Positions 3,447-57,054 of a stretch of 64,000 nt of DNA are shown in pieces. The stretch spans positions 93,602 through 157,601 of the forward strand of contig CAQIDI010000002.1 in the NCBI GenBank assembly GCA_948806215.1, read 5' to 3'. Below the pieces are notes generated by a model. The model was given only the letters and a program-made list of their open reading frames with translations, ran no database searches and was not told where the DNA came from. A program made the translations under genes and the position numbers. The DNA comes from an uncultured Eubacteriales bacterium (GTDB taxonomy: Bacteria > Bacillota > Clostridia > Christensenellales > UBA1242). How positions within the stretch are numbered: position 1 is the first letter of the stretch; each line of letters begins with the position of its first letter.

Positions 3447-3917
3447 TTAATTTTCCAAGAAACGAATTTCGTTATAAACTTTTTCTGCTTGCTCCTTAGT
3501 TCCTTCAACTGCAACTATAAAAGCTTTGCGTGGAAATTCGTAATCGTCCAATTCTAATTTTACTCTGCCTTTTTTAAAAACTACTCTAGTTCTAATTAAT
3601 GTGTTATCTCGTTTATATCCCAAAAAATCTAACATCGATTTTATTGCCTTTTCATCATCAAAATTAATAGGCAAACTTTCTTTTCGTTCGTGTAGCACAC
3701 TGGTGGATAAAACACTCTCTTTAAATTCAAGTTCTTTAATTGCCTTTCCATTTTTTTCGATAATAGTAACACGAGCCATTGTGCTGTTTGGGTGCCTATA
3801 AATTATGCGTTGTTGTTTATTAGAACTAACTAGTTCGTAGCCATTATTTCCGCAATATTCAATATAGGGTATTAAATTTTTAACTTCAAAACTATATTCG
3901 TTTTCTTTCATAAACAA
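3447..3917 (-). CDS. CYTH-like domain protein (CyaB/thiamine-triphosphatase fold)
   Basis: 156 aa. An N-terminal FEVK strand and C-terminal KLELDDYEF..FIVAVEG resemble CYTH signatures, but the ExExK motif is not fully canonical. Confidence 0.45.
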   Translation of the reverse strand: MFMKENEYSFEVKNLIPYIEYCGNNGYELVSSNKQQRIIYRHPNSTMARVTIIEKNGKAIKELEFKESVLSTSVLHERKESLPINFDDEKAIKSMLDFLGYKRDNTLIRTRVVFKKGRVKLELDDYEFPRKAFIVAVEGTKEQAEKVYNEIRFLEN

Positions 3918-3990
3918 TTTTCCTTAACTTAAGTATAGCACAATAAAATATTAGTGCCCAACAAAATTAAATTTTGATTTAAAATTTTTT

Positions 3991-4024
3991 AAAAAAAGTT
4001 ACCGCTAAACGGTAACCTTTTTTA
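3991..4024. terminator. Bidirectional-looking hairpin terminator
   Basis: GTTACCG-ctaaa-CGGTAAC (3998-4016), with an A-run before and a T-run after. Lies downstream of the 4037-4648 gene. Confidence 0.65.
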
Positions 4025-4036
4025 TTCTTATTTTAT

Positions 4037-4648
4037 TTATAAGTTTATATTAATACCAAACTCTTTTAGTTTGTTTGCAAAATCTTTAAAGCTATCAATT
4101 CTTTTAACATTAGGTGAACTTTGCAATGTTTTATTATAATCAGTACTCATTAAAAATGCAGTGCATTTAAAATTTTTATTGTTAAAATGTTCTGCCACAT
4201 TTCCAGTTATTTTAATATCATCATCAATAAAAACATTAGCGTGTTCTTGTTCGCAAATTTTTTCTTTATCGTTTCTGCCAATATAAATTTTATTATATTT
4301 TAAGTTGTTGTTTTCTAACCACTTATAAGTTACTTCTTCTGGGTTGGTGTGCCAATCGTTTGCACGCGCAGTTGATATTATAATTTTATGCCCCATATCG
4401 TAAAGTGCGTTAATTAATTTTATTGCATTTGGTTTTGCCGGAAACTCCAACATCATTTGGTCGCCATATTGTTTATACCAATTTAATGCAGTTTCTAAAT
4501 CCCAATCAAACTTTTTTTCTGCAAACCTAACAACTTTTGCAACTTGTTTAAATGGCAGTTTATTATCTTTTATAAACTTATTTATGTAATATTCGCTATA
4601 GGCATCGGTATCACAAATTGTATCGTCTAAATCAAAAACAAAAACCAC
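4037..4648 (-). CDS. HAD-superfamily hydrolase, putative nucleotidase
   Basis: N-terminal FVFDLDDTICD matches the DxDxT HAD motif I; a later FIDDD matches motif IV. Confidence 0.65.
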   Translation of the reverse strand: MVFVFDLDDTICDTDAYSEYYINKFIKDNKLPFKQVAKVVRFAEKKFDWDLETALNWYKQYGDQMMLEFPAKPNAIKLINALYDMGHKIIISTARANDWHTNPEEVTYKWLENNNLKYNKIYIGRNDKEKICEQEHANVFIDDDIKITGNVAEHFNNKNFKCTAFLMSTDYNKTLQSSPNVKRIDSFKDFANKLKEFGININL

Positions 4649-5029: not shown

Positions 5030-5443
5030 TTAAAATTTAACATCTTCGGTTTTTAAATCTTTATAAAATCTTGTGTTTTCTATTGTGAATTTTAACACGC
5101 AATAATCTGGATCGGTTTTACCGTTTTTATAAAAAATACTATCGCCCAATTTCCAAATCTCATTTTTAATTTCTTGATTGGTTAACACTTCCATTTTTCC
5201 TATTAACGCAATTCCTGTGTAACTAATCAAACCCTTTTTATAAAAATAAACGCACGCTTTTGGACAGTTATTATATTCGGTAACTTTATTAGAAGAAAGA
5301 TTTGTGGAAAAATAAAGTTCGTTGCGTTCAATTTTTCTTGGGCGTAGCATTGCCCTAATAACAGGATAGCCGTGTTCGTTAATTGATGAAATTATTGCAA
5401 CCTTTTGTTTTTTTATAAGTTTTATTATATCTTCTTTTGTCAT
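5030..5443 (-). CDS. Pyridoxamine 5'-phosphate oxidase-like FMN-binding protein
   Basis: 137 aa. The pattern VAIISSINEHGYPVIRAMLRP...LYFSTNLSSNKV is typical of the PNPOx/general stress protein 26 family. AGGTGG SD lies upstream. Confidence 0.6.
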   Translation of the reverse strand: MTKEDIIKLIKKQKVAIISSINEHGYPVIRAMLRPRKIERNELYFSTNLSSNKVTEYNNCPKACVYFYKKGLISYTGIALIGKMEVLTNQEIKNEIWKLGDSIFYKNGKTDPDYCVLKFTIENTRFYKDLKTEDVKF

Positions 5444-5655
5444 TTTATTACCACCTATTTTAATTTTATAAAAGTTACTGTTTTATTTTTTTAAATATTT
5501 TATCAACATTAAAACCAATTAATTGTTTTTTTATATGTTTAAAACCAATGTCCAACATTAACACCAGTTATTTTTTTATTTCGTTTAAAGTTAAAACTAG
5601 ACTTTCTAAATTTTTACTACCGACATATTGCCATAATTTTTGATATTTAATAATA

Positions 5656-6459
5656 TTAACTTTTTAAATCTAACATAACCGGTAAGTGATCACTATAATC
5701 TAGTTCTAAAATATCGCAGTTATTTATGTTTTGTTTTTCGCTAGCACTTAGCAATGCATAATCTATGCGATATTTCCAACTGTTGTAGCTATTATCTTGC
5801 CTAGAGCGATAACTTCGCCAAGAATATTTAACAGTTTCTGGATTATAATATCTAAAACAATCAACCAAATTTAGTTTTAACAAGTTGTTAAACGCTTCTC
5901 GCTCGATTGGTAAAAACACCGATTTTGTTTTACATTCTTTAGGGTTAGTTAAATCTATTTCGGTGTGAGCTATGTTAAAATCGCCCACACAAACAACTTT
6001 ATATTGTTCGCCTAGCACTTTTAAGTACTTAGTTAACGCACTTAAATACTGCATTTTAAATTCCAGCCTACTATTTCCGTTTGGGATATAGGCATCAACT
6101 ATAGCAAGATTTCCTAAAATTATGGTTGTTGTTCTGCCTTCGTTATCTTGCCAAAATTCGCTCATATTAAACATAACCTTATCGGGTTTGTGTTTTGTTA
6201 ATATAAGTGTTCCCGCATAACCTGCAATTTCTCCGCAATTATAAATTGGGAAATAATCTTTTAAAATATTGTTATTATCTTCTTCGCCAAACAAACTAAG
6301 CTGGCTAGTTTTAGGATACAAAATTTCTTTAGTTACATTTTCGTTTGCTCTAACTTCTTGAAAACAATAAACATCTGCATCAAAATTTTTTATCCATTCT
6401 ATTAAGCCTAGTTTTGCACTGGCTCTAATTCCGTTTATGTTATAAGATACTATTTTCAT
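5656..6459 (-). CDS. xth: Exodeoxyribonuclease III
   Basis: MKIVSYNINGIRA, CFQEVRA and C-terminal SDHLPVMLDL are hallmarks of the ExoIII/APE1 family. Confidence 0.9.
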   Translation of the reverse strand: MKIVSYNINGIRASAKLGLIEWIKNFDADVYCFQEVRANENVTKEILYPKTSQLSLFGEEDNNNILKDYFPIYNCGEIAGYAGTLILTKHKPDKVMFNMSEFWQDNEGRTTTIILGNLAIVDAYIPNGNSRLEFKMQYLSALTKYLKVLGEQYKVVCVGDFNIAHTEIDLTNPKECKTKSVFLPIEREAFNNLLKLNLVDCFRYYNPETVKYSWRSYRSRQDNSYNSWKYRIDYALLSASEKQNINNCDILELDYSDHLPVMLDLKS

Positions 6460-6599
6460 ACTATTATTTTATAATATAAACAATATTTAATCAACTTTTA
6501 AGTTTATTTAATATCAATTAAACATTTTATAATTAAAATAAAAATGTTGTTTCAATAATTTTTTTGTGATAAAATTTTTTTGAACTGAGGAGAAAAACT

Positions 6600-8000
6600 A
6601 TGGCTTTTAAATACGACATAAATTCAGCTAAAAAAGATAAAGTTTCAAGCGTTTGTTTGTTAACAACACACTCTATTTCAGAAATTATTAATATGCTGGT
6701 TTCAACATTCTTGGTTGGACATATTTATGGCTTTTGCAATAATAATGCCTACACCTATATTTTTAATGTTGGCGTTTATTATTTAACATTATATATTGTT
6801 AGTATTGTTGTGCACTTAATACTAGGCCCATTAGTTGATAAAACAAACAGAGTTTGGTTATATCGAATAAGTTTACTAATGCGAGCAGGTTTAATTGTTG
6901 TGTGTGTTTTCTTAGGAAACAACCTAGCCCAAATGTTGGTTTTAGCCGGAATTTTAAGTGGTATTTCAGAAGGCTTTTATTATGCTGCTTACAACACAAT
7001 GAAGCAAGAAATGGTTAGCAGAACTTCGATTGGCAAATATGTTACACTAAGTATGGTTCTACAAAAATTTGTTTATATTGTTTTCCCAATAACAATGGGT
7101 GCATTAATTGATATTTCTTCTTACTCCACTGTTGCAATTTATGTTTTAGTTATTGCAATAATTCAAATTGGAATTTCGTTTGGAATAAAATCACGAAAAC
7201 CAGAAGGTAGCCATTTTGATTTAAAGGGTTACTTTGTAAAATTAAAAGAGAACCCAGAAATAGGCAAAAAAATGAAAATGCTTTATATTGCTGCAATTCC
7301 TTATGGGCTTGGAACAATTGTTGGCGTTTTGTTAAATGTTTCTATTATGTTACAATTTGAAAAAAGCTTTGACCTTGGTTGGTTAACAACTGTGTTCTCG
7401 ATAGTTTCTGCTTTGTTTATTATAGTTATTAATAAACTAACAAAAAAAGGCGAACGCAGTTGGTTGTTTGTTGTAACTGGAATTTTGCCACTGATAGGCT
7501 CAATTTCATTTAGTGTTTATCCGGGAATTATAACAATTATTATTTATAACATTTGTAATGCTATAAGCAATATAACCTATAAAACCGTTTACGATATTTA
7601 CCGCAATGGCAACTTAAAAGAAGCCGGATTATATAGTGAAATTCAAGAACACCAAACTTTTACCGAGGTTGTGTTTAACGGAATGAGAGTTATTGCTTTT
7701 GCTTTAATGCTAATTTCGGGATTAGTAAAAAATATAATATTCTTTAAAGTTTTCCTATGCATTTGTTCTTTAACCTACACATTTACTTTAATTGCTCTTA
7801 TGATTTACGAAAAAAAGTTTCCGCCTGCAAAACTTGAATTGCAAGCAGAAACAGCTTTAAAAAAACCAATTTTAGCAGTTGACGATAAAAACATTTTAGA
7901 ACAAGTTGAAAACATAAAAAGCCAAGAAGTTAACGAATTACCAACAGAAAATTTAAAGAAAAAACCTAGCAAAAAAGAAGGCGAAAAAAACAATAAATAA
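6600..8000 (+). CDS. MFS-type transporter with a Lys/Glu-rich C-terminal tail
   Basis: 466 aa with about 12 hydrophobic segments. GAGGAG SD lies upstream. Confidence 0.6.
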   Translation: MAFKYDINSAKKDKVSSVCLLTTHSISEIINMLVSTFLVGHIYGFCNNNAYTYIFNVGVYYLTLYIVSIVVHLILGPLVDKTNRVWLYRISLLMRAGLIVVCVFLGNNLAQMLVLAGILSGISEGFYYAAYNTMKQEMVSRTSIGKYVTLSMVLQKFVYIVFPITMGALIDISSYSTVAIYVLVIAIIQIGISFGIKSRKPEGSHFDLKGYFVKLKENPEIGKKMKMLYIAAIPYGLGTIVGVLLNVSIMLQFEKSFDLGWLTTVFSIVSALFIIVINKLTKKGERSWLFVVTGILPLIGSISFSVYPGIITIIIYNICNAISNITYKTVYDIYRNGNLKEAGLYSEIQEHQTFTEVVFNGMRVIAFALMLISGLVKNIIFFKVFLCICSLTYTFTLIALMIYEKKFPPAKLELQAETALKKPILAVDDKNILEQVENIKSQEVNELPTENLKKKPSKKEGEKNNK

Positions 8001-29699: not shown

Positions 29700-31661
<1,962 letters not shown>

Positions 31662-31785
31662 TTACTTAAAAAGAATATTCCTTTTAAGTAATCTTAAACT
31701 ATATATATATTATCATATTTATTTACTATATGTAAAGTAAATATAATAAATAATATATATTATATACTATATAACATTTTAAACA

Positions 31786-31856
31786 GCCCAAATTGACACA
31801 ATTTAATAAAAATAATGTATTTTATCGTTTAAATTGGTTTTGTGTCAAATTGGGGC
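31786..31856. promoter_or_regulatory. Inverted repeat bracketing the putative gyrB core promoter
   Basis: GCCCAAATTGACACA (31786-31800) against TGTGTCAAATTGGGGC (31841-31856). 13 of 14 core positions are complementary, with a 40-bp spacer. Confidence 0.45.
31819..31848 (-). promoter_or_regulatory. Putative gyrBA promoter
   Basis: On the minus strand, TTGACA (31848-31843), 18-nt spacer, TAAAAT (31824-31819). This implies a leader of about 180 nt. Confidence 0.45.
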
Positions 31857-31877
31857 GATTTTGCCGTTTATAAATAA

Positions 31878-31906
31878 TTGACAATGTTAAGATAAATTAA
31901 TAAAAT
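31878..31906 (+). promoter_or_regulatory. Putative promoter of the 31930 gene
   Basis: TTGACA, 17-nt spacer, TAAAAT. Confidence 0.55.
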
Positions 31907-31929
31907 ACAAATAATTAGAGGTAATACAA

Positions 31930-52683: not shown

Positions 52684-55077
52684 TTGGATAACAAGAAAAA
52701 AAGTAAAGCATCCGGAATTTTAACAGTAATAATTTTAGTTCTGGCTGTTATTTTAGTGTTTTGGCTAGCTGGTTCAGGAAGTAACGGAAAGCGTATTGAC
52801 TGGACATCGTTTGAAAATATGATGGAAGCAGGAGAAATTTCCGATGTTTATTTAAGCAACGGAATTGGAAAAGTTAGAAGGGTTGATAGTAACATAACCG
52901 ACCGTGACTGGCCTAAAAATTCTGATTATTATTTCGAATATGTGTTTAGCGCACAAATAGAACGCATTTATGAATTTAACGATAAAATTAACAAAGCAAA
53001 TGGCAAGGGATTAGAAGCAAACGAAACCGCCGACGATTATATTGCATACAAAAACTTTGCAAGAATTTCGATTGAAAGTGTTCCTGCCAAACCTAGTTTC
53101 TTAGAAACATTGTTGCCATATGTTAGCGTTGTTATTGTTTTAGTTATTGGCATTTTAATGTTTAAAATGTTAAGTGGCAAAAGTAGCCCGGCAGGTGGCT
53201 TTGGAAAAAGCAAAGTAAAACTAATGGATAAATCCACAGTTAAGTTTGACGATATTGCCGGTGCAGAAGAAGAAAAAGAAGAAACCAAAGAAATTGTTGA
53301 GTTTTTAAAAAATCCAGAAAGATTTAAAAACTTGGGCGCAAGAATACCAAAAGGTATTTTGTTAGTAGGACCACCGGGAACAGGTAAAACCTTGCTTGCA
53401 AAAGCAGTTGCAGGGGAAAGTAATGTTCCGTTCTATTCTATTAGTGGTTCTGACTTTGTGGAATTATATGTTGGTGTGGGTGCAAGCCGTGTTAGAGATT
53501 TATTTGATACAGCAAAACAACATTCACCTTGCATTGTGTTTATTGATGAAATAGATGCAGTTGGCCGTCAGCGCGGAGCAGGGCTTGGTGGCGGAAACGA
53601 TGAAAGAGAACAAACATTAAACCAACTATTAGTAGAAATGGATGGTTTTGAAAGTAACACCGGAATTATTGTGTTGGCAGCAACCAACCGTGCCGATGTT
53701 TTAGATCCAGCACTACTTCGTCCGGGTAGATTTGACCGTCAAATAATGGTTTATCCGCCAGATGTTAAAGGTCGTGAAGGAATTATTAAAATTCACGCTA
53801 AAAACAAACCTATCGATCCAGAAGTTAACTTAACTGCAATAGCCAGATTAACAAGCGGATTTACTGGTGCAGATATTGAAAACTTCCTAAACGAAGCCGC
53901 AATTCTAGCAGCGCGTGATGGAAGACTTACAATAACAATGGAAGATATTACCGAAGGTATTAACAAAGTTGTGGCTGGCCCTCAGAAAAAGAGCCAACTA
54001 ATAACCGAAGAAGATAAAAAAGTTACAGCTTATCACGAATCTGGACACGCAATTTTATCAAAGCTTTTAAACTATGGCGAACAAGTTCACGAAGTTTCAA
54101 TTATTCCTCGTGGAAACGCAGGCGGATTTACTTTAAACCGTCCAGATAACGATAATAATTATATGTTCTATAACAAACTATGCGATAGAATAACCATGAC
54201 AATGGGTGGCAGAATTGCCGAAGAATTAGTGTTTGGCGATATAACTCCGGGTGCTAGTTCCGATATTGACCACGCAACCAAAATTGCAAGAAGAATGGTT
54301 ACCGAATGGGGTATGAGCAAAAACCTAGGATTTATTAACTTGGGTAGTTCAAACGAAGTGTTTATTGGTAGAGATTATCAAACACAAGTAAACTATTCTG
54401 AAAAAACTGCATCGTTAATCGATGAAGAAATTAAGGCTATTTTGGATAAATGCTATAAAAAAGGAAAAGATTTATTAACTAAAAATCGTAAGATTTTAGA
54501 AAATATGGCACAATTACTATTACTTAAAGAAACTATTTACACCGAAGAAGTTCAAGCAATAGTAGATGGCAAAGATTATAGAAAGGTTGCAGAAGAACTT
54601 GATGTTAAAGAAAAAGCTGCTGCCGCAAAAAATGCAGAACGCAAAAAACAAGCCGAAGAAGAAAATTTGCGTAAGATGCAAGAACTAAAATTAAAAGCAG
54701 CCGAAGCTTTAAGCAATGCAGGAGTTATTACCAAACAAGATTTGGAAATAATAAAAGAAGAAACAAAAAAATTAAACGAATTAGAAAAAACCGAAAAACT
54801 TGCAACTCAACAAAGCAACGAAAAAGTTGAATCTGAAAATGCTGAAACCAAAGTTGAAAAGGTTGAACAAGTTAAACCTAAAACTTCAAGCAAAGCAAAA
54901 TCAACTACTGCAAAAAAGCAAACTGCAAAAACTTCAAGCACAACAAAGGCTTCAAAATCAAGTGCTTCCGGCGAAAACAAAACCATTAGCCCAAAGACTA
55001 AAGCACAAACTAATAAAACTACCAAAAAGTCTGAAAGCAAAAAAACAAATAATAACGACCAAAACAAACAAGGCTAA
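52684..55077 (+). CDS. ftsH: ATP-dependent zinc metalloprotease FtsH with a long low-complexity C-terminal extension
   Basis: TTG start 9 nt after GGAGG. Walker [12 protein letters not shown], and the zinc site HESGHA. The last ~190 aa are Lys/Ala/Thr/Ser-rich. Confidence 0.95.
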
Positions 55078-55762: not shown

Positions 55763-55783
55763 AATATAACTAAGCAAAAAAAT

Positions 55784-55809
55784 AAACACACCAATTTGGT
55801 GTGTTTTTT
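55784..55809. terminator. Bidirectional terminator
   Basis: AAACACACC-aattt-GGTGTGTTT, flanked by A/T runs. Confidence 0.8.
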
Positions 55810-56008
55810 ATTCTAAACCTAATAAATAATCTGTGGTGCATTTAAAGAATTTTGCTAGGGCAATTAAAGTATCTACTGATGGAGTGCGACTGCCTTTTTC
55901 CAATTTAGCAATACAAGCTTGGCTCAAACCAGTTTCTTTAGAAAGTTGTGTTTGAGTTAAATTATTATCTATTCGCAAATCCTTTAATCTTTCAGGAAAT
56001 TTGTCCAT
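55808..56008 (-). CDS. XRE-family HTH repressor (paralog A)
   Basis: 66 aa: ERLKDLRIDNNLTQTQLSKETGLSQACIAKLEKGSRTP...LAKFFKCTTDYLLGL. Confidence 0.8.
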   Translation of the reverse strand: MDKFPERLKDLRIDNNLTQTQLSKETGLSQACIAKLEKGSRTPSVDTLIALAKFFKCTTDYLLGLE

Positions 56009-56061
56009 TACTTGCCCCTATAAATTTTTTATAATTATATGGCAAAAGTAATAATAATGTC

Positions 56062-56090
56062 TTGACATATGGCAACTGTCATAATATAAT
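56062..56090 (+). promoter_or_regulatory. Consensus promoter facing away from XRE-A, towards the 3' end of XRE-B
   Basis: TTGACA (56062-56067), 17-nt spacer, TATAAT (56085-56090). Confidence 0.55.
56068..56083. promoter_or_regulatory. Palindromic operator OA1
   Basis: TATGGCA-AC-TGTCATA. It occupies the promoter spacer. Confidence 0.5.
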
Positions 56091-56097
56091 AAATATA

Positions 56098-56113
56098 TAT
56101 GACACTTGCCATA
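56098..56113. promoter_or_regulatory. Palindromic operator OA2
   Basis: TATGACA-CT-TGCCATA, 30 bp centre to centre from OA1. Confidence 0.5.
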
Positions 56114-56123
56114 TTATATTGAA

Positions 56124-56146
56124 TAAAAAAACGGAAAGTTCCGTTT
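56124..56146 (-). terminator. Terminator after XRE-B
   Basis: AAACGGAA-agt-TTCCGTTT, with a T-run on the minus strand. Confidence 0.7.
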
Positions 56147-56351
56147 AATAATCAGTTAAGCCTAGCAAATAATCGGTGGTGCAATCAAAAAATTTAGCCA
56201 AAGCTATCAAACAATCCAAGTTTGGGCTTCGGTTTCCAGCTTCCCACCTTGCAATGGTTGTTTGTGTGTAGTTTAATGCTTTTGCTAATTCGCTTTGCGT
56301 TAAGCCTTTTTCTTCTCGCAATTCCTTTAGCCTAATTGATAATTTATTCAT
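56145..56351 (-). CDS. XRE-family HTH repressor (paralog B)
   Basis: 68 aa: IRLKELREEKGLTQSELAKALNYTQTTIARWEAGNRSP...LAKFFDCTTDYLLGL. About 37 of 66 positions are identical to paralog A by manual alignment. Confidence 0.8.
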   Translation of the reverse strand: MNKLSIRLKELREEKGLTQSELAKALNYTQTTIARWEAGNRSPNLDCLIALAKFFDCTTDYLLGLTDY

Positions 56352-56393
56352 ACTATGTCCTTAAACAGTTGTTTTTCTTATGTATTATTAAAA

Positions 56394-56410
56394 TATGGCA
56401 GAATGTCATA
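56394..56410. promoter_or_regulatory. Palindromic operator OB1
   Basis: TATGGCA-GAA-TGTCATA: the same half-sites as OA1 and OA2, but with a 3-bp spacer. Confidence 0.5.
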
Positions 56411-56445
56411 TTATTAATATTTTACGAAAACCATTGTTTAACAAC

Positions 56446-56474
56446 TTGACTTATACCATATTGTCATATATAAT
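56446..56474 (+). promoter_or_regulatory. Near-consensus promoter divergent from XRE-B
   Basis: TTGACT (56446-56451), 17-nt spacer, TATAAT (56469-56474). Confidence 0.55.
56452..56468. promoter_or_regulatory. Operator OB2 filling the promoter spacer
   Basis: TATACCA-TAT-TGTCATA. Confidence 0.45.
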
Positions 56475-56480
56475 ATAACC

Positions 56481-56654
56481 AATCTAAATTATCTTTATTC
56501 ACGAAAACAAAAATAATGGATTTTGCGCATTAGGGGAAATTTGTTCTGTTATTTTAATCATCAAAGATAATTTAGAGCGATGGATACAGTGAAAATTGCT
56601 CAGTCGTAGGGCATTTTTCACAAAAAAAACACCACTAACCTCGGTGTTTTTTTT
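56481..56654 (+). ncRNA. Candidate structured small RNA of about 175 nt (family unknown)
   Basis: Bounded by the promoter at 56446-56474 and a terminator hairpin plus T8 at 56628-56654. A perfect 14-bp helix pairs 56483-56496 with 56563-56576. Inner helix: 56510-56520 with 56545-56555. Second hairpin: 56589-56601 with 56609-56621. No ORF longer than 9 codons and no SD. Confidence 0.4.
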
Positions 56655-56682
56655 ATTTTGTTATAACAATTTTAAGTTTATT

Positions 56683-57054
56683 TTATATTTTATTTTTTGT
56701 TTTATCGTGTTTATTATTAACAATATTAGTCGCCTTTGTTTTTTTAACTGGTTCTTGTTTTTGTTTAACTTCTTCGGTTTGCTTGTTTTCTTCTTCCATA
56801 ACGTCTGCTTTTCCGGTTAGTGTTTCCGACGACCTAAGTTTTTTAATTAGGTTTTTATAATATTGTTTTTGGGTGTGCTTTAATAGTTTTAAAATATCTT
56901 CGTTGTAAGCACCTAAAAAGGTTGTAAAAATATCGCCAGAGTTTGTTAACGAAATGGTTAACAAAGTGCAACAATTTTCATCAATTAAAGTTTGTTTATT
57001 GTTTGTGTTTGTAACTTTAAAGTTTAACTCGTTAGCTGTATCAATTTTTTCCAT
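56683..57054 (-). CDS. Hypothetical protein with a Lys/Glu-rich C-terminus
   Basis: 123-aa ORF, 13 nt downstream of ychF on the same strand. No recognisable motif. Confidence 0.45.
   Translation of the reverse strand: MEKIDTANELNFKVTNTNNKQTLIDENCCTLLTISLTNSGDIFTTFLGAYNEDILKLLKHTQKQYYKNLIKKLRSSETLTGKADVMEEENKQTEEVKQKQEPVKKTKATNIVNNKHDKTKNKI

Follow-up and report, generated by a model that had tools for sequence, protein, structure and literature searches.

The locus considered here lies in the ychF-ftsH interval of an uncultured bacterium, within a 64-kb stretch of DNA (30% GC) that was analysed as a whole and is referred to below as the window. A gap at 56352-56682 separates XRE-B, a gene for a small HTH protein, from a 123-aa open reading frame (ORF) that follows ychF on the minus strand, and it is in this gap, divergent from XRE-B, that the RNA unit described below is found. 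A paralogous HTH gene, XRE-A, belongs to the same inserted block (Table 1). Exact-protein look-ups retrieved more than 20 contigs of the same species (at least 99% identical); XRE-A, XRE-B and the gap are kept in all strains seen, and a GIY-YIG gene (93 or 70 aa), a 166-aa gene and a 199-aa gene have been gained or lost around the XRE block between strains. The ychF-ftsH interval as a whole is a hot spot for gain and loss of small genes among strains at least 99% identical, and several combinations occur (variable small genes at 5441-5722, 6284-6784 and 3946-4545 of contig L001, and at 5053-5265 of contig L129). The GIY-YIG nuclease-domain ORF is positioned between both XRE genes, the 166-aa ORF lies after XRE-A and gave no family match, and the 199-aa ORF, with a weak match to DUF4760, comes after the 12x-aa ORF. 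Pfam, PHROGs and PADLOC assigned no system to the variable neighbour proteins (123, 132, 166 and 199 aa, and GIY-YIG). The ORF for FtsH (52684-55077) carries a long Lys/Thr/Ser-rich low-complexity C-terminal tail, with a 36-bp tandem repeat at 54993-55064, and the length of the tail varies across sister species (759-804 aa).

Sister species whose YchF protein is 92%, 89% and 87% identical have syntenic loci with neither the XRE block nor the RNA. In these species ychF and the 12x-aa ORF (in one case also the 199-aa gene) converge directly on a 205-aa gene and ftsH, and the ychF/ftsH gap measures 50-190 bp and holds two terminators. The lack of XRE genes and RNA in these species marks the block of about 850 bp (55807-56654) as a lineage-specific insertion, and the combination of XRE-A, XRE-B and RNA occurs in a single low-GC Bacillota species of the gut, which is uncultured, and in the sister lineage closest to it. 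This sister lineage, represented by contigs L132-L134, was reached through a variant of XRE-B with two amino-acid changes. The bidirectional terminators that bound the XRE block (55776-55809 and 56624-56657) are alike (GGTGTGTTTTTTATT versus GGTGTTTTTTTTATT), their inverted arms being 71% complementary over 34 nt; the likeness may go back to an ancestral terminator that was duplicated or into which the block was inserted.

Table 1. Features of the XRE block and of the predicted RNA unit, with positions given in the window
Feature	Position	Strand	Description
XRE-A	55808..56008	-	66-aa HTH paralogue; Pfam HTH_3 E = 8e-17, 61.5 bits
Second promoter, same design	56062..56090	+	TTGACA-17-TATAAT, perfect; operator TATGGCAACTGTCATA exactly in spacer; gap upstream of XRE-A (56009-56144)
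XRE-B	56145..56351	-	68-aa Cro/C1-type HTH; Pfam HTH_3 E = 3.9e-19, 68.9 bits (cut-off 23)
OB1, operator-like	56394..56410	.	TATGGCA-GAA-TGTCATA; perfect palindrome match; 58 bp upstream of OB2; overlaps likely XRE-B promoter
Sigma-70-type promoter of RNA unit	56446..56474	+	-35 TTGACT 56446-56451, 17-nt spacer, -10 TATAAT 56469-56474; 11/12 consensus matches
OB2, operator-like	56452..56468	.	TATACCA-TAT-TGTCATA (TATACCATATTGTCATA); exactly fills promoter spacer; 2 mismatches to palindrome TATGRCA-N3-TGYCATA
Predicted transcript	56481..56654	+	about 174 nt (about 138 nt if P3 terminates); RNAfold -45.0 kcal/mol, z = -5.65
P1 5' arm	56483..56496	+	UCUAAAUUAUCUUU; perfect 14-bp pairing with 56563-56576
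Interior domain	56497..56562	+	inside P1; predicted P2 (56510-20 with 56545-55) and loop; conserved blocks ACGAAA, CAAAAA, GCGCAU, GAAAUUUGUUC
P1 3' arm	56563..56576	+	AAAGAUAAUUUAGA; pairs with 56483-56496
Linker, single-stranded	56577..56588	+	block GGAUACAGUGA (56582-56592) identical in both lineages
P3 hairpin	56589..56621	+	7 + 5 pairs around a U.U mismatch; RNAfold
Main intrinsic terminator	56622..56654	+	A8-CACC, 9-nt loop, GGUG-U8; bidirectional in form

For the gap next to XRE-B, the first-pass annotation had described a unit of about 175 nt running from a promoter to a terminator, and every feature listed there lies at its given coordinates. By its sequence the unit has a promoter of its own, from which transcription is predicted to start at A56481 or A56482. 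A promoter match of this quality alone is not rare, as the window contains 8 sites with at least 11 of 12 consensus positions against 5.2 +/- 2.1 in shuffled sequence. From the -35 to the -10 box, OB2 included, all 29 positions are identical in L132 despite a neutral divergence of about 40%. Sites of the type TATGRCA-N3-TGYCATA occur twice in the 64 kb, both times within the gap between XRE-B and the RNA; in L132, OB2 is identical and OB1 agrees at 15 of 17 positions, with both half-sites intact and the central GAA replaced by AAT. The conserved promoter and operator-like sites fit with gating by a dimeric HTH repressor, and we infer that XRE-B, rather than XRE-A, would be the protein that binds OB2.

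A similar arrangement is evident in the gap upstream of XRE-A, which holds three operator sites with a 2-nt centre, placed 30 bp apart (56038, 56068 and 56098), as well as the second promoter of Table 1. The operator sites are restricted to the two XRE gaps, and together the site types and promoters indicate that the two XRE genes have different operator types, each gene being accompanied by a rightward promoter of the common design. Since no U tract follows the hairpin at 56129-56146 on the plus strand, a transcript from the second promoter would run antisense into XRE-B. A weaker equivalent of this promoter, TTGGCT-17-TAATAT around TATGGCAAATGTCATA, is seen in L132. Elsewhere in the window, a long-range inverted repeat lies at 31785-31860 (GCCCAAATTGACACAA...TTGTGTCAAATTGGGGC, arms of about 15 bp, AT-rich loop of about 38 nt) in a gap between divergent genes (31632-31929), with a TTGACA box in each arm and promoter matches of at least 11/12 nearby, at 31878-31906 on the plus strand and 31848-31819 on the minus strand. 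This repeat scores weakly against the small RNA models (16.9 and 24.7 bits) and is probably unrelated to the small RNA; it could be an operator across two divergent promoters.

The predicted transcript folds into a stable structure, with none of 200 shuffled sequences as stable as the plus strand; the opposite strand of 56481-56654 reaches -38.8 kcal/mol (z = -4.17). The helices had been called unusually strong, which is tempered by the GC-corrected fold energy, as this is no outlier: the 141-nt body without its terminator ranks 118 of 6386 GC-corrected windows of the genome piece, that is within the top 2%, notable and not extreme. P1 is indeed a perfect 14-bp helix, and the RNAfold minimum-energy structure contains P2 and P3 in the form given earlier. 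The 64-kb window has 4 perfect inverted repeats of 14 bp or more with loops of up to 100 nt, against 0.27 expected; three of them are of terminator type with loops of 3-7 nt, leaving P1 as the sole repeat with a long loop.

The 3' part of the unit contains two hairpins that resemble terminators. A consensus scan scored the inner stem of P3 with the following UUUUU as terminator-like, and it did not return the main terminator because the 9-nt loop of the latter exceeds the scan's maximum of 8 nt; the 12-nt arms of this main terminator (56622-56633 and 56643-56654) are 100% complementary. P3 may, from its sequence, be a first intrinsic terminator, and the unit would then end in tandem terminators. 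It had also been suggested that the last hairpin is shared with the convergent ychF operon, which describes the window-type strains only. Strains with the 199-aa gene have a terminator belonging to that gene, and their homology to the window breaks off precisely at 56654, the final U of the hairpin, showing that the hairpin is part of the RNA unit and not of the ychF operon; in strains other than the window type and in the sister lineage the operon has a terminator of its own and the hairpin stays with the RNA unit. L132 keeps the intrinsic terminator of the unit with a different loop and a longer stem.

The sister lineage provides a diverged copy of the RNA at the same position, which a covariance model built from the window sequence detects with 45.5 bits (E = 1e-8). 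For comparison, the ychF gene is 85.7% identical to that of L132 at the nucleotide level, and identity at 4-fold sites is 59% in ychF and 68% in XRE-B. Identity to L132 amounts to 88% in the 5' arm of P1, 56% in the interior (13 gap columns), 61% in the 3' arm of P1, 67% in the linker, 60% in P3, 65% in the terminator and 33% beyond it, so that the RNA body, at 56-67%, diverges at about the neutral rate. The L132 RNA nonetheless folds to -46.2 kcal/mol (z = -6.17; opposite strand z = -4.78) and keeps P1, and its P3 is a continuous 14-bp hairpin followed by U6.

The substitutions that separate the two copies largely preserve pairing. P1 is free of indels and retains 13 of its 14 pairs: 10 are invariant, two have changed from U-A to U-G, A56487-U56572 has become G-C, and one terminal pair is lost. 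All 12 pairs of P3 are kept (6 invariant, 4-5 altered on one side and still pairing, one flipped from U-A to A-U), and the U.U mismatch of the window is an A-U pair in L132. Taken together, P1 and P3 show 2 double compensatory changes and 7 pairs altered on one side, and strain L129 preserves an intermediate state among these pair changes, in which the 3' side alone is altered. Survival of at least 25 of 26 pairs under 10 random substitutions on the 52 paired bases has a probability of 8e-5 to 2.5e-3 (transition/transversion ratio 1 to 4); these figures should be read with the sample in mind, since with two diverged lineages and an alignment behind the pair counts that was fitted to the model, the covariation rests on two double changes. 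Should P3 be a terminator, P1 would be the only conserved helix of another kind. The earlier reading of the structure thus stands in part, P1 and P3 being kept with compensatory or G-U changes in the comparison of the two lineages but P2 not. In L132, 11 nt are missing from the 5' side of P2, the 3' arm is a different one, and the centroid fold shows an open interior. The 24-nt loop of P2 (UUGCGCAUUAGGGGAAAU), which had been put forward as the exposed functional part, is not conserved in L132 either. Short blocks that are conserved in both lineages are ACGAAA, CAAAAA, GCGCAU, GAAAUUUGUUC and GGAUACAGUGA.

The direction of the one-sided changes is informative as to the level at which the helices are maintained. 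The strain polymorphisms A56592G and C56599U give G-U pairs on the plus strand, and the other two polymorphisms fall in the linker (G56583A) and in the terminator loop. All one-sided changes, these polymorphisms included, are A-to-G or C-to-U on the plus strand, where they leave G-U pairs; on the minus strand they would be A.C mismatches. This pattern points to selection on a plus-strand RNA. It argues against the view that the 14-bp inverted repeat works in the DNA alone, bound by a protein or used for recombination at the edge of the XRE block, since the changes that keep G-U pairs in RNA spoil a DNA palindrome. Such a site would make sense of a perfect inverted repeat near the boundary of a lineage-specific insertion, and of the likeness between the terminators at the two ends of the block, but the homology breakpoint lies at 56654, after the terminator, and not at P1, and the window-type strains have no recombinase or nuclease gene. 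We therefore consider a role at the DNA level very improbable.

A coding function finds even less room. The unit had been described as having no ORF longer than 9 codons, which is not quite the case, as it contains a 15-codon ORF starting with TTG on the plus strand and a 40-codon ORF starting with GTG on the minus strand, and ORFs of 20-37 codons lie in the upstream part of the gap; none of them has a Shine-Dalgarno sequence, as had been stated. In L132 the minus-strand ORF, which is not hydrophobic, is shortened from 40 to 16 codons. A 9-codon ORF on the plus strand stands behind an AGGGG and could, like the two just named, be held to be a small protein gene; 6 of its 9 codons are changed in L132 and the AGGGG is lost there. 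Indels of 2, 11, 4 and 3 nt have been tolerated between the lineages, and no small ORF is conserved on either strand between the window and the sister lineage. With neither Shine-Dalgarno sequences nor conservation, the non-coding reading stands. A 16-nt motif that recurs at a spacing of 343/344 bp across XRE-A, XRE-B and the RNA region raised the idea of a decayed third XRE copy, which was rejected: the region does not align to the XRE genes, has stops in every frame, and shows no similarity in six-frame translation. For these reasons we give hardly any weight to a gene for a small protein, on whichever strand, or to a decayed XRE copy, slightly less than to a DNA-level element.

With regard to known RNA families, the unit had not been recognised as 6S, SRP, tmRNA, RNase P, a T-box or a common riboswitch, and no Rfam family matches it. 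Rfam 15 at gathering score returned a single tRNA for the whole window, located elsewhere, and when 56000-56800 and the sister copy were scanned by E-value the best matches (RNAI, STnc370 and others) reached 12-32 bits against thresholds of 43-228 and are terminator look-alikes. Attenuating leaders usually consist of a structured RNA with terminators behind it, and a cis-regulatory leader or riboswitch might be suspected on these grounds, were there a gene on the plus strand downstream to be regulated; instead, the genes that follow point towards the unit in every strain type as well as in the sister lineage. Membership of an already described family, or a leader function, is accordingly the least probable of the readings considered here. 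The hydrophobic toxin ORF of a type I toxin-antitoxin system is likewise absent, the opposite strand offering only the 40-codon ORF that begins with GTG and has no Shine-Dalgarno sequence. Mimicry of a CRISPR repeat was also rejected, as the window contains no array.

A weightier alternative is that the transcript is a by-product or relic without function. In this scenario the XRE-controlled rightward promoter would be kept for the sake of the switch itself, or would once have driven a cargo gene that is now lost, and the tandem terminators would stop the transcript at once and so prevent an antisense run into the convergent ychF operon. Two hairpins of the unit, P3 and the last one, have the appearance of terminators, the RNA body evolves at about the neutral rate with P2 and its loop not conserved, and the locus is a hot spot where genes come and go among strains. 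A cassette in another genome (L029, discussed below), with the same -35 box, -10 box and first transcribed bases, drives a 113-aa TM2-domain protein, and the covariance-model searches found no homologue of the RNA elsewhere. A mere by-product would not explain, however, why P1, which is not a terminator, has kept 13 of its 14 pairs with a compensatory change to G-C and otherwise wobble-only changes, nor why all strains seen have the unit intact, and why it outlasted a species-level split, when its neighbours were gained and lost. There is also no trace of a decayed coding sequence: six-frame comparison with the neighbours of 80 XRE homologues gave noise, and there is no alignment to the XRE genes. 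A relic of a cargo gene was rejected on these grounds, the tblastn comparison of 4420 ORFs from 88 XRE-homologue loci with the region giving noise of at most 20 bits. On this evidence we hold the by-product scenario to be unlikely, while giving it considerably more weight than any of the preceding alternatives.

The search for relatives placed the RNA in a narrow range. No homologue was found beside other XRE genes, in 80 GTDB species loci and in L093-L100, with blastn, nhmmer and the covariance models R1 and R2, and among the other XRE loci only L029 shares the promoter. No RNA homologue occurs elsewhere in the 64-kb window. Viral collections yielded seven chance matches or none, phage and plasmid collections yielded none by blastn, and an 18-mer scan of metagenomes yielded eight chance matches. 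No target emerged from the predictions: RNAduplex against 84 gene starts was uninformative in such AT-rich DNA, a 13-bp complement (2 G-U) to the start codon region of XRE-A was equalled in 36% of shuffles and has no counterpart in the sister lineage, and for the conserved 11-mers the window offered no complement of any significance. The literature on XRE-linked small RNAs offered no specific precedent.

Considering these observations together, we favour, as on balance probable, the reading that the unit, about 140-175 nt on the plus strand, is a genuine gene for a small non-coding RNA, XRE-gated and lineage-restricted. Judging from the sequence, its transcription, its repression by XRE-B and its action in trans would proceed as follows. 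RNA polymerase would start at A56481 or A56482 from the near-consensus sigma-70 promoter, unless an XRE dimer, most likely of XRE-B, sat on the half-palindromes of the spacer operator and shut the promoter; loss or titration of the repressor would allow the RNA to be made. The transcript would begin 2 nt before P1, which would hide the 5' end and close an interior domain of 66 nt, followed by a short single-stranded linker (GGAUACA) and by a 3' end in which P3 and the main terminator, each a hairpin with a U tract, stand one after the other. Selection would appear to maintain the P1 and P3 helices, the promoter with its operator and a few short blocks, but not P2 or its loop. The most likely role would be that of a trans-acting regulatory RNA forming the output of the XRE switch, in which the unpaired conserved blocks GAAAUUUGUUC and GGAUACAGUGA would be candidate contact sites.

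If transcribed, the unit would give an uncultured lineage of gut Bacillota a small RNA that belongs to no known family, with a clear regulatory input that can be tested, in the form of a 68-aa XRE repressor and an operator in the promoter spacer. As lineage-restricted small RNAs under the control of transcription factors are common, it opens no long-standing question and is best regarded as an ordinary candidate small RNA. A more far-reaching variant of this reading, which we consider improbable, makes the RNA the effector arm of a minimal two-repressor switch: it would be the RNA-only cargo of a portable XRE-promoter cassette, perhaps acting as an immunity or anti-repressor RNA of a phage or mobile element, or in feedback on the XRE pair. 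Were this to be true, the RNA, together with the promoter at 56062-56090 that points antisense into XRE-B, would constitute a repressor/RNA circuit of undescribed design.

Known systems share several of these traits. RoxS/RsaE and SR1 are stand-alone small RNAs of the Firmicutes that end in an intrinsic terminator, and they resemble the candidate RNA in that each has a promoter of its own under a transcription factor, a structured 5' end and an intrinsic terminator, measures about 100-200 nt, lacks coding capacity and is phylogenetically narrow in distribution. There are differences as well, in that the RNA of the window shows no similarity to them in sequence or model, has no C-rich seed loops and is part of a lineage-specific accessory block rather than of the core genome.

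A further parallel in layout is the lambda-type immunity region, in which a Cro/CI-type HTH repressor is combined with back-to-back promoters and with operators that overlap the rightward promoter. In the window, a small HTH gene of the XRE/Cro-C1 type is likewise paired with a strong divergent promoter whose spacer holds an operator; another operator lies at the promoter of the repressor itself, and the paralogous repressor with its set of operators is found next door. In contrast to the lambda arrangement, the rightward product is a terminated non-coding RNA and not cro with the lytic genes, the XRE repressors are in tandem rather than facing one another, and the XRE block has no phage genes around it and no match in the phage and viral collections. 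Mobile elements are also known to encode short terminated transcripts or immunity RNAs, such as the 6S RNA from PR' of lambda, the CI RNA of P4, c4 of P1 and Qs/Anti-Q of pCF10 under PrgX, and these share with the window unit a repressor-linked promoter that gives rise to a short structured RNA with a nearby terminator. The window unit differs from them in having neither a downstream operon to antiterminate into nor an overlapping antisense partner, and there is no similarity in sequence or model, Rfam C4 and related models giving no match.

Another counterpart is provided by L029, a Clostridia MAG from the rabbit gut (3568-4207), in which an XRE protein 53% identical is accompanied by a promoter of the form TTGACT-17-TATAAT with a palindrome in its spacer and by the same first transcribed bases, ATAA(A/C)CAATCT. 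The spacer palindrome itself is a different one (TGGAACAAATTGTTCCA), and the L029 promoter drives its TM2-domain membrane protein behind a 5' UTR of about 30 nt, whereas the promoter of the window precedes an RNA without ORF. The cassette can hence carry different cargo, and the L029 example suggests that XRE-promoter cassettes are portable switches that can be placed before protein or RNA cargo.
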